DNA of 64,000 nucleotides from Dictyostelium discoideum (GCA_000004695.1 CM000152.2:3936001-4000000), one strand, 5' to 3'; counted from the first letter of the stretch, positions 3,911-57,958 are shown. Notes: generated by a model not told the origin, from the sequence alone. A program made the numbers and translations.

Positions 3911-4261
3911 ATGACACTTTTCTGTAAGGATTATTTAATAATTTATAGTTTTAAAAAAAAAAACAAAAAAAAACTAATAAATTAATTATTATCAATAGCA
4001 TCAATCTCATCAATTTCAAATCCAATGACAAGTTCAAAATCCAGTATTGCATCATTTGGTAGTGGAACAAGTATGGGTTCAAATTCAATTGCATGTGGTG
4101 GTGGTTGTGGTGGAAGTGATGGTATTCTTGGTTTAGGCTTAGGTTTAAGTTTAGGTTTAGGTTTAGGTTTAAATTTAACTGGAGGTTCTAGATCTAGAGG
4201 TGGTTGTGGTGGTAGTAATGGAAGTATGGGTGGAGGAAATGGTTCATGTTGTGGTATTTAA
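3911..4261 (+). CDS. hssA/2C/7E-family protein, copy 4 (exons 3911..3923, 3999..4261)
   Basis: Micro-exon ATGACACTTTTCT|GTAAGG; acceptor AATAG|CATCAATCTC. Protein most similar to copy 2. Confidence 0.75.
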
Positions 4262-24946: not shown

Positions 24947-25058
24947 TTTCTTTTTATTTATTTATACTCATAGTAACATAATAGATGATATAATATAAAA
25001 AAAAAAAATTTTAAAAATGTTATTACTTACATTTATTTTTTTTAAATATTATTTTTTT

Positions 25059-25097
<39 letters not shown>

Positions 25098-25173
25098 CTA
25101 CAACTTTTGTATTTTTATATTCTACAAATAATTCCCACACCCACTAACTATTATTATTATATTAATTTTTTTC

Positions 25174-25206
<33 letters not shown>

Positions 25207-25440
25207 TTTAAAAAAAAATAGAATCAAACAAATTAAAAAAAAAGGAAAAAGTAATAAAGGTTTTTTAAAAAATAATTGTTTATTTAATTAATAATTCGAA
25301 TTATTCCATTTATCAGTTTGAAGTAATTTTAAATTGGATTGGGGGAATTTTTTTTTTTTTTTATAAAATGAAATTTCATTTTTTAAATTGATATTGTTTA
25401 ATATTTTTTAAGAATTAAGAAACCATAAAGAACCTGAAGT

Positions 25441-25602
25441 TTAAAATTGAACACCACCTTTATTACCAAGTGGATTGTTATTTTGAATTTTAGATTTATT
25501 TTCAGAATTAATTTGAAGAGATTTTGAATTTATATTATTATTATTATTTAATGATGATGGTGATGATTTATTTATAATATTAATTAAAGAATTGAAAATC
25601 AT
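25441..25602 (-). CDS. possible small ORF (53 aa) MIFNSLINIINKSSPSSLNNNNINSKSLQINSENKSKIQNNNPLGNKGGVQF
   Basis: ATG-to-TAA ORF below the track cutoff. Slightly GC-enriched relative to flanks, with Dictyostelium-preferred codons. Low-complexity; could be spurious. Confidence 0.2.
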   Translation of the reverse strand: MIFNSLINIINKSSPSSLNNNNNINSKSLQINSENKSKIQNNNPLGNKGGVQF

Positions 25603-26828
25603 TTTTTTTATTTTAATTATTTTATTTATTTATATTTTAATGAAATTTTAAAATTTGTTTTTATTAATTAAATTTTAATTTTAATTTATTTAATTTAATT
25701 TTATTTTATTTGTTTGAATAATGAAATAAAAATAAAAAATCATGTTTGATTAAATACTTAATTTTTTAGAAATAAAAATCAATAAAATTAATAAAAATTA
25801 AAAATAAAAAATTGACAGGGTTGCAAATTAAAAAAAAAAATTAGTTAAAAAACGAAAATAAGTTTAAAACTATCTAATAATAGTATTGATGTTATTTTTA
25901 TATCCAAAAAATGAAGATAAAGTGAAATCAAATCAAATTCTATTGTTTTTTTTTAGAACAATTATTGTACAAATATAATCAATTTTTTACACATTGTCCA
26001 ATTTTATAAAAAAATAATTTAAATTGATTTTATTGAACAACCCCACCACAAAAAAATAAAAAAATAAAAAAATAATTAAATTATTAATTAAATAATTAAA
26101 TAATTTAATAAATATATAAATGATAAAAAAAATGGTGAATTTTTTGTGGTGAACTTAACACCATTAAAAATTGATTATTAAAGTTTGTATGATAATATTA
26201 CTTTTCATATTATTGTTATTTTCAGTTTAATTTTAAACTCCTTTAAATCGATCGAATAATATCAATAAAGATGAGATGATCTCACTACAAAAACCTGATT
26301 CCATGGGTTTCTTAATAATATGCAATGCCAGAAAAAAATAAATCTATTTTTACAATTATTATTGAGATTAAAAATTTATTAAAAATAATAAATAAATCAC
26401 CAGCTAGTAAAAGAAACAAAAAGGAATTGTTATCAATAATTTTGTTATTATTAATTTCCTATTTAAATAATGATTAAAAAAAATAGAAAAATGCAAAAAA
26501 AAAAAAAAAAATAAAATAAAATAAAATAAAATAAAATAAACCTCATATGTAATAATATTAATTAAAAATTAATTAAAAAAAAAACTTTATATGATTCAAA
26601 AAACTTAATCATATAAGTAAAAAATAATTAATTTATTTCTATTTATTCAACATTTTTCTATTTTCATTATTACTTTAATAGAAATTAAGGTGTAAACAAA
26701 TTTATTAATTTTTGAAAAAGAAAAAAAGAAAAAAAAAGATTTTCAATTCTCGTTACTCAATTGTGAAAAAAAAAAAAAAAAAAAAACAAAAAAACAAAAA
26801 AACAAAAAAACAAAAATCTAAAAAATAT

Positions 26829-26836
26829 TCCCATAA
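26829..26836 (+). promoter_or_regulatory. DUSE-like motif TCCCATAA ([AT]CCCA[CT]AA)
   Basis: Matches the Dictyostelium upstream sequence element found ~60-65 nt upstream of ncRNA genes (class I RNAs, snRNAs, SRP RNA). It lies ~60 nt upstream of the GC-rich island starting ~26895. A TATA-like TATTTATG sits at 26866-26873. Confidence 0.45.
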
Positions 26837-26894
26837 AAAAAAAAATCAAACTTCTCATATTTATGTAAACGCTGAATTATTTTTATAATTAACA

Positions 26895-27057
26895 CAATCC
26901 GTATTCGAAGGCTCTACTTGTTTAGCCATAAGAGTTAGAGTTCAAAATTCAACGGTAAACAGATTAATGCCTGTATCGCCAAATTAGGATTCATCCACAG
27001 TTAAACTGTGGTAATGTTTAATTATAGGATTACATCATTTAAATTTTAAAAAAAAAA
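26895..27057 (+). ncRNA. candidate ncRNA gene of unknown class (GC-rich structured island, ~130-160 nt, ends at a T-run)
   Basis: About 45% G+C over 26900-27010 inside a multi-kb 85% A+T intergenic region. No ORF over 30 codons on either strand. Local hairpins (CCACAG-TTAAA-CTGTGG; CCGT...ACGG). Preceded by DUSE and TATA. Followed by TTAAATTTT/T-runs. No convincing match to U1/U2/U4/U5/U6, C/D boxes or the class I motif. Confidence 0.4.
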
Positions 27058-27531
27058 TATAAAAAAATAATTTAAAAAGAAAAAAGTTTTATTTTTGGGT
27101 TAATTTCCATTTTGAAATTTAATTAATAATAAGAACTTGCATAAATAAATTTTTCCAAATTTATTAATAAAAAATTAATATTAAATAGTTATATTATAAT
27201 AAAAATATTTAAATAATTAATATTTTAATAATAAATAAAAATTAATTATTTATTTATTACTATTATAATATAACTTTTTAATATTAATTTTTTATTGGTA
27301 AAAATAGTGGTATTTTTTTTTTTATTATTAATAATAAAACAACTGTTTTTAAATTTTATTTATTTTGGTAAAAAAAAATTAAAACTAAAATGATTGGAAT
27401 ATATTTGGTAATGAAAATTTTAAAAAAATATATAGATTGAATTAATTCTACACAAACTTATTTATTTGGTAATTAAAATTTTTTTTTTTTTTTTTTTATT
27501 TTTTTTTTTTTTTTTTTTTTTGGCGTGAGTT

Positions 27532-27567
<36 letters not shown>

Positions 27568-27632
27568 TTTTTTTATTATTATTTATTATTTTTATTTGTT
27601 TTTTATTTTATTTATTTTTTGTTTGTTTAAAA

Positions 27633-27774
27633 ATGGAAGAAGAACAAAACTTAGCATTTAGTATTCAACCTATTGGAAAATTAGATGTTGATGGTATAAG
27701 ATTAGTTTTAAATCATACAGAGATATCAACTGATTATTCTGATAATGAAAATACCACAACATCACCTCAATACT

Positions 27775-57885: not shown

Positions 57886-57958
57886 TGGAGAAGAAGGGTA
57901 TCGATCCCTTTACCTCTCGCATGCTAAGCGAGCGCTCTACCATCTGAGCTACATCCCC
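57886..57958 (-). tRNA. tRNA-Ala (anticodon AGC)
   Basis: Reverse complement GGGGATGTAGCTCAGATGGTAGAGCGCTCGCTTAGCATGCGAGAGGTAAAGGGATCGATACCCTTCTTCTCCA folds as a cloverleaf with G3:U70 and A73 (Ala identity elements), anticodon loop CTTAGCATG, D-loop GG18/19. Followed by a T-run terminator. One acceptor mismatch (T6:T67) and A54 in the T-loop, so it may be a variant or weakly degenerate copy. Confidence 0.8.

Follow-up and report, generated by a model that had tools for sequence, protein, structure and literature searches.

The window, i.e., the whole 64-kb stretch of Dictyostelium discoideum DNA analysed here, is of AX4 type (chromosome 3) and contains an intergenic region of 2.7 kb (24947-27632) that is bounded on one side by a His/Gln-rich gene on the minus strand and on the other by a RAB3GAP2_N-domain gene that starts at 27633; two ORFs of the window are exact matches to DDB_G0281035 and DDB_G0281037. 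The region has a G+C content of 14.1% (~86% A+T), in keeping with the multi-kb setting of ~85% A+T described in the initial annotation. Situated ~600 bp 5' of the ATG of the RAB3GAP2_N-domain gene, and ~3.2 kb downstream of DDB_G0281037, is an island with 34-36% G+C over 130-150 nt (36.2% in the best 130-nt segment and 38% in the best 100-nt segment), flanked by DNA with 9-15% G+C. The initial annotation had recorded this feature as a ~130-nt island of ~45% G+C; a G+C-richer non-coding island is indeed present, but its G+C content had been overstated. Stops occur in all six frames of 26893-27040, so that protein coding is ruled out and the earlier statement that neither strand holds an ORF is borne out, and folding likewise gave the several local hairpins that had been described. 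A covariance-model search of the window returned the RNA body at 26896-27037 as its single match, and further copies beyond the window were found only at the syntenic position of six related genomes. The element is thus single-copy in 64 kb, and very unlikely to be the repeat fragment that the initial annotation had considered as a way in which its proposal might fail.

A match to the DUSE pattern [AT]CCCA[CT]AA, i.e., TCCCATAA, lies on the + strand at 26829-26836, exactly where it had been placed before. Relative to the first base of the conserved RNA (26896) its spacing is 67 nt from the start of the motif and 59 nt from its end, the latter agreeing with the ~60 nt claimed for the island. 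A DUSE at ~-60 is a hallmark of ncRNA genes in Dictyostelium, whether transcribed by Pol II or Pol III, and this ~60-nt spacing has been described for them (PMC7919456; PMC3188802). The arrangement at this locus, with [AT]CCCA[CT]AA ~60 nt 5' of the putative RNA start, is the one seen in DUSE-dependent ncRNA genes. The DUSE pattern alone is not enriched: the window holds nine matches, and shuffles predict 9.9. Only one of the nine, the match at 26829, precedes a jump in G+C (0.13 upstream, 0.35 downstream). What stands above chance is the combination of DUSE with the G+C jump and with conservation, not DUSE alone.

The TATA-like core TATTTATG is found at 26859-66, which is ~-37 to -30 relative to 26896; the element noted in the initial annotation is therefore present, but not at the -25 to -30 given there. 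In its longer form, CATATTTATG, it is the same in five of seven loci, the remaining two reading CATATAAATG and CATATTTATC, and it has 40% variable columns compared to ~70% in the adjoining spacer. On the other side of the island, TTT and TTTT runs occur 3' of 27037, as had been reported; a short T-run comes straight after the RNA tail in 7/7 loci, and the rest of 27038-27047 is variable. The features of the locus are collected in the table.

Table. Features of the predicted snoRNA gene, with the fraction of variable columns in the seven-way alignment
Feature	Position	Strand	Basis or remarks	Variable columns
Upstream of DUSE				0.76
DUSE TCCCATAAA, putative promoter element	26829..26837	+	sequence; invariant in 7/7 syntenic loci	0.00 (0/9)
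Spacer DUSE-TATA				0.68
TATA-like element CATATTTATG	26857..26866	+	~-39 to -30; putative function	0.40
Segment up to RNA body	26867-26895			0.70
Predicted mature box H/ACA snoRNA, 142 nt	26896..27037	+	conservation footprint, no ORF, single covariance-model match in window	0.17 (26/151)
Hairpin 1	26899..26955	+	folds so in isolation; layout as in Rfam TB11Cs5H3 consensus	
Hairpin-1 5' guide strand UCGAAG	26905..26910	+	invariant in 7 loci; 6/6 Watson-Crick to LSU 5'-CUUCGA-3', 3' of target U	
Hairpin-1 3' guide strand UCAAAA	26942..26947	+	invariant in 7 loci; 6/6 Watson-Crick to LSU 5'-UUUUGA-3', 5' of target U	
Hinge UAAACAGAUUAAUG, A-rich	26956..26969	+	sequence	
Hairpin 2	26970..27028	+	isolated folding gives lower and apical stems	
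ACA box	27032..27034	+	invariant in 7/7 loci; AUU before, 3-nt tail UCA (27035-37) after	
T-runs TTTAAATTTT, possible termination/processing region	27038..27047	+	sequence	
Downstream				0.65

Conservation was analyzed in a seven-way alignment that comprised AX4 and the syntenic locus of six related genomes (D. discoideum, D. cf. discoideum and D. citrinum). Five of the six loci were reached via orthologues in the exact-sequence cluster of DDB_G0281037, which come from new assemblies, and the sixth is the locus of a RAB3GAP2_N homologue. The island is at the syntenic position in 6/6 related loci. DUSE does not vary at all, compared to 76% and 68% variability in the 29 and 19 columns that flank it; in the RNA body 17% of columns vary, and in the flanks 65-76%, which is the conservation of the island without its flanks that the initial annotation had proposed to look for. 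The edges of the conserved block are sharp, at ~26896 (the first invariant base) and at 27037. Within the intergenic DNA of the seven genomes, coding-like conservation is limited to DUSE and the 142-nt body, and these two are retained even in the three shortest versions of the intergenic region (1.3-1.5 kb, compared to ~2.8-2.9 kb in the other four). As DUSE and a body with sharp ends are kept across seven genomes, the element is under purifying selection as a unit. Within the body, variation is placed in the hairpin-1 apical loop (with 6 nt inserted in one lineage), the upper stems, the bulge, the hinge, the distal hairpin-2 loop and the tail, whereas the guide strands, the lower stems, the ACA and the loop strands adjoining the upper stems have zero variable positions. 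The initial annotation had put forward a DUSE-preceded ncRNA gene, transcribed independently and neither an exon nor a repeat; the DUSE that is invariant in 7/7 loci, the conserved body and its single copy in the window all speak for that proposal. Farther out, the element is absent from the RAB3GAP2_N intergenic regions of D. purpureum and T. lacteum as searched with nhmmer, by pattern search and with the covariance model.

The comparison also revealed features of the surrounding DNA. Directly 5' of the snoRNA gene, a ~1.6-kb A+T-rich segment (window 25200-26800) is a presence/absence polymorphism: it is found in AX4 and in three of the related loci (L001, L133 and L131), and is not found in the D. 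cf. discoideum locus L130 or in either of the D. citrinum loci. At 25847-25996, AX4 and L001 are 98-100% identical, compared to ~88% in the surroundings. The L001 assembly (GCA_054859355.1) differs from AX4 by ~10% in intergenic DNA and by ~5% of amino acids in the RAB3GAP2_N protein, and its distinctive changes in the island recur in L133 (GCA_054859385.1), both assemblies being labelled Dictyostelium discoideum. Since this divergence is far beyond what is expected within a species, divergent lineages appear to share the name D. discoideum.

The Rfam covariance search that the initial annotation had recommended gave no family at gathering level, and it did give a sub-threshold lead. In the gathering-threshold scan of the whole window the only match was to a tRNA-Ala(AGC) gene at 57886-57958 on the minus strand (58 bits; also called by ARAGORN). 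A scan of 26700-27200 at E <= 10 returned three sub-threshold matches, of which only the trypanosomatid H/ACA-like RNA TB11Cs5H3 (RF01544) was informative: it aligned with 26898-26959 at 14.6 bits (E = 2.8), and the strings in common, UUCGAAGGC and GUUCAAAA, are located in the two internal-loop strands of the TB11Cs5H3 model. With 14.6 bits against a gathering score of 50 bits, the island RNA is not a member of RF01544, and the likeness is in the guide pocket only. This weak match prompted us to read the whole RNA as box H/ACA. RNAs of this class are laid out as hairpin-hinge-hairpin-tail over ~120-160 nt, with an H box (ANANNA) in the hinge and the target U 14-16 nt 5' of the H or ACA box, and the mature 3' end is three nt past the ACA.

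In agreement with this layout, each half of the 142-nt body folds by itself into a hairpin with a large internal loop. Hairpin 1 has a short lower stem of 4 + 3 bp (CCGU/ACGG and AUU/AAU, with a 3-nt bulge), above which lies the pseudouridylation pocket, followed by an upper stem (26911-26941) with a variable apical loop; the variable positions of hairpin 1 are found only in this loop, in the upper stem and in the bulge. Hairpin 2 has the lower stem CCUGUA/UAUAGG, a large internal loop (5' strand 26976-26991; 3' strand UUUAAU at 27017-22) and the upper stem (CAU)CCACAG/CUGUGG(..AUG). Hairpin 2 is conserved to the same degree as hairpin 1, with no variation in the lower stem or in either of the proximal loop strands, and with indels limited to the distal part of the 5' loop (26982-85). 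The ACA is three nt before the putative 3' end, i.e., conservation collapses 3' of 27037, exactly at ACA+3. The H box is less clear-cut. The hinge holds an ANANNA match, AGAUUA (26961-66); a box of this type is retained in 5/7 loci, and the two D. citrinum loci have CGAAUA in its place. The invariant bases of the hinge, UAAAC (26956-60), would yield AAAC[A/C]G, a non-canonical H box. From the hairpin-1 target U, the distance to AGAUUA is 19 nt (16 if the 3-nt bulge is looped out), and to the invariant AAA at 26957 it is 15 nt. For hairpin 2, the pocket is 15 nt from the ACA only with a three-pair extension of the upper stem, in which mismatches occur in L131 and D. citrinum. An H/ACA scaRNA was considered and rejected: the hairpin-1 loop, UUAGCC in AX4, is variable and in D. 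citrinum contains no AG, in hairpin 2 the loop reads UUAAA, and no conserved CAB box (UGAG) was found in the apical loops of the seven loci.

Across the seven sequences, 97.4% of cells can form the proposed pair; the pair change A26997G is compatible (A-U to G-U), and six cells in five pairs are unpaired. No pair has changed on both sides, which is explained by the seven genomes being too similar. Folding stability is unremarkable (z = ~-1.6). For the full-length RNA, both the MFE fold and RNAalifold favour a terminal stem, AAUCC (26896-26900)/GGAUU (27027-27031), over the two H/ACA lower stems; as all ten AAUCC/GGAUU bases are invariant, this alternative stem is beyond the resolving power of the seven genomes.

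As a rule, the 3' loop strand of an H/ACA guide pairs with the rRNA that precedes the target U, and the 5' loop strand with the rRNA from U+2 onward. Applied to the invariant strands UCAAAA and UCGAAG, this rule predicts the target 5'-UUUUGA-U-N-CUUCGA-3', which we take to be a sequence of LSU rRNA domain V and then tested on rDNA data. To this end, a metagenome scan with an adjacent conserved 21-mer alone yielded 120 eukaryotic rDNA stretches with 108 usable sites. A perfect 12/12 Watson-Crick target site was present in 105 of these 108 eukaryotic LSU rDNA loci, and within the 14-nt site of those 105 only the unpaired N varies (C in 86, U in 19). In two complete, Rfam-annotated rDNA units the target is the only perfect, G-U-free 6+6 site. 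None of 500 shuffles of the guide strands reached 12/12, and in dinucleotide shuffles of the whole RNA, analyzed with a permissive stem-loop-stem finder, a perfect 6+6 rRNA pocket match arose in 4/1000. Free-register scans that allowed G-U gave many spurious scores of 11-14, so that the significance of the guide rests on the structural register together with all-Watson-Crick pairing. Hairpin 1 has the form of an H/ACA pocket, in which the two strands flank the target U and leave this U and the following nucleotide unpaired.

In 95 of 96 loci, the offsets from the target are +5 to a C, +15 to a U and +56-58 to UGU. These offsets fit the yeast modified positions m5C2870, Ψ2880 and Um2921/Gm2922/Ψ2923 (table in PMC5699541), which points to the target U being the equivalent of yeast 25S U2865 (Ψ2865). 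In yeast, Ψ2865 is guided by snR46, and the counterparts of this guide are ACA16 in human (28S-U4412), ACA41 in Plasmodium and ACA-Eh-LSU3008 in Entamoeba (PMC3542256). In D. discoideum, Cm3213 (CD38) lies in CGGCUCUUC and Um3254 (CD25) is the A-loop U (PMC8817022 and its supplement); with Cm3213 14 nt 3' of the target and Um3254 as the A-loop U, the target would be ~26S-U3199. That D. discoideum's own 26S reads UUUUGAUNCUUCGA at this site is suggested by its near-universal conservation. Dictyostelium-specific 26S and 17S fragments (PMC8817022 supplement) were absent from all of the metagenome rDNA loci, and three scans of viral contigs for Dictyostelium rDNA found none, two being empty and one returning a fragment of a divergent eukaryotic LSU. 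A D. discoideum 26S 20-mer did match a Candidatus Promineifilaceae MAG (L135, 2387-2406). Given its context of ~50% G+C with no rRNA motifs we regard this as a chance match, which is expected for a 20-mer in 596 Gb.

For hairpin 2, searches of the two complete rDNA units and of the 120 rDNA loci, in fixed and free registers, found no target above the level of shuffles, and its invariant loop strands (…AGGAUU/UUUAAU) have no significant match in conserved rRNA. The best candidate in the sense orientation, AUUAAA-UC-AGUUAU at the equivalent of SSU Ψ106, has ten paired positions including two G-U, with one mismatch, and is within the range of shuffles; a recurrent match, AUGAAUC, was dropped for lying on the antisense strand of SSU rRNA. 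We also observed a complementarity between the invariant UCGCCA at 26976-26981, part of the distal 5' loop in hairpin 2, and UGGCGA near Am1370 of D. discoideum 26S, in the fragment UUUGGUAAGCAGAACUGGCGA (PMC8817022 supplement), with a geometry unlike that of a pseudouridylation pocket.

Taken together, the island is very probably a functional RNA gene, and with good though lesser confidence we read it as an independently transcribed box H/ACA guide for one conserved LSU Ψ near the catalytic centre. The initial annotation had found no match to an H/ACA snoRNA and left the class open; on the evidence of the sequence, we would assign the RNA to box H/ACA based on its architecture, the ACA three nt from the end and the 12-bp bipartite guide to a known conserved Ψ site. 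The RNA could instead be a DUSE-driven small RNA of a different or unknown class, with the AAUCC/GGAUU terminal stem and internal hairpins and with a coincidental likeness to H/ACA RNAs and a coincidental complementarity to rRNA. The choice of that terminal stem by RNAalifold and the full-length MFE would fit such an RNA, as would the lack of covariation that separates the folds, the ambiguous H box and the hairpin 2 without a target, and DUSE precedes several ncRNA classes, lineage-specific ones included (PMC7919456). We nevertheless judge this improbable, given that a perfect 6+6 pocket match arises so rarely in shuffles and here falls on a known conserved Ψ site, and that the ACA is exactly three nt before the end of conservation. 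The RNA matches no other Rfam family, and a Class I RNA would be ~60 nt in size with a short 5'/3' stem and an 11-nt motif containing CCTTACAG, whereas the island RNA is 142 nt and CCTTACAG is absent from it, as the initial annotation had also noted. Elsewhere in the window CCTTACAG occurs once, on the minus strand at 3929, where the context is unrelated.

The position of the block, ~600 bp 5' of the RAB3GAP2_N ATG, would also suit a cis-regulatory DNA block or an untranslated exon of that flanking gene. We hold this to be very unlikely, since the invariant DUSE at the canonical ~60 nt points to ncRNA-type transcription, the 142-nt block has indels only in predicted loops and is conserved like coding sequence, and the DNA from there up to the ATG is poorly conserved. 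Its absence 5' of the D. purpureum and T. lacteum orthologues further argues that the block is not tied to the RAB3GAP2_N gene. Least credible of all is a chance G+C-richer patch beside a chance DUSE, or a repeat fragment: the chance frequency of DUSE matches in the window and the unexceptional folding energy would be compatible with it, but it is already contradicted by strong purifying selection with sharp edges in seven genomes, and the sequence is single-copy in 64 kb with other copies only at the syntenic positions.

Compared to known systems, the predicted H/ACA snoRNA shares with snR46, SNORA16 (ACA16) and ACA-Eh-LSU3008 the same predicted target uridine and the logic of a bipartite H/ACA pocket. 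It differs from them in carrying this guide in the 5' hairpin, in having its own DUSE promoter and in its non-canonical or displaced H box, and no sequence homology to them was detected, with no Rfam match to their families at E <= 10. As judged from sequence, the Dictyostelium RNA and the snR46-type RNAs may be orthologous or may have converged on one site. TB11Cs5H3 has near-identical pocket strings at the same positions relative to lower stem, pocket and upper stem, and so presumably guides the same LSU site; it is a single hairpin with an AGA box, compared to two hairpins and an ACA box in the Dictyostelium RNA. Neither TB11Cs5H3 nor the sequence of the island came up in the literature searched. 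With the spliceosomal snRNAs and the Class I and Class II RNAs of Dictyostelia the locus has in common a conserved [AT]CCCA[CT]AA ~60 nt 5' of the RNA start, and SRP RNA too is among the DUSE-dependent ncRNA genes. The locus differs from the DUSE-dependent snRNA and Class I genes in that its predicted product is a guide snoRNA, with no TGTG box between DUSE and the RNA start. The nearest relative in kind is sno18/DdR18, of the same organism, RNA class and expected RNP, which papers of 2019 and 2022 name as the sole H/ACA snoRNA identified to date in D. discoideum (PMC6912284; PMC8817022). The Rfam DdR models, including the DdR18 model that a preprint on D. giganteum made use of, gave no match in the gathering scan of the window or in the E <= 10 scan of 26700-27200, which indicates that the island RNA differs from DdR18. 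No rRNA Ψ map or H/ACA catalogue of D. discoideum was found in the literature searched.

From the sequence features, the conservation footprint and the LSU complementarity described above, we infer the following course of transcription, RNA end formation, protein binding and modification. DUSE (~-63) and the TATA-like element (~-35) would recruit snRNA-type transcription machinery, with transcription starting near 26892-26896, and the nascent RNA would fold into two hairpins joined by the hinge and followed by the ACA tail. Dyskerin, Gar1, Nhp2 and Nop10 are all present in D. discoideum (PMC6912284). Binding of dyskerin/Cbf5, Nop10, Nhp2 and Gar1 would be accompanied by trimming to three nt past the ACA (27037). 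In the nucleolus, the hairpin-1 loop would pair either side of one 26S uridine, in 5'-UUUUGA-U-N-CUUCGA-3' of domain V in the region of the peptidyl-transferase centre, and dyskerin would turn this uridine into pseudouridine, i.e., the equivalent of yeast 25S Ψ2865 and human 28S U4412 (numbering of PMC3542256), at ~26S-U3199 of D. discoideum.

A gene of this kind is ordinary, and on the literature searched it is apparently undescribed in D. discoideum; its identification is of use for annotation and adds a little to what is known of conserved rRNA modification, and is no surprise. The locus provides a concrete guide-target pair, i.e., the predicted snoRNA and 26S-U3199, the equivalent of yeast Ψ2865 beside the peptidyl-transferase centre. 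A wider proposal, which we offer tentatively and consider rather doubtful as a whole, is that this undescribed H/ACA snoRNA is the second known in D. discoideum on the literature searched, that its invariant second pocket may guide a lineage-specific rRNA target or a non-rRNA target (an snRNA, a Class I RNA or an mRNA), and that in Dictyostelia the H/ACA genes may each stand alone, driven by a DUSE and with a non-canonical H box. Dozens of H/ACA guides are to be expected in a eukaryote that has dyskerin. The present locus suggests a search recipe for further members of the family in Amoebozoa, i.e., a G+C island within A+T-rich DNA that has a DUSE at -60, an ACA tail and an rRNA-complementary pocket, and, if the wider proposal is true, it would help to find the H/ACA repertoire that is missing in Amoebozoa.
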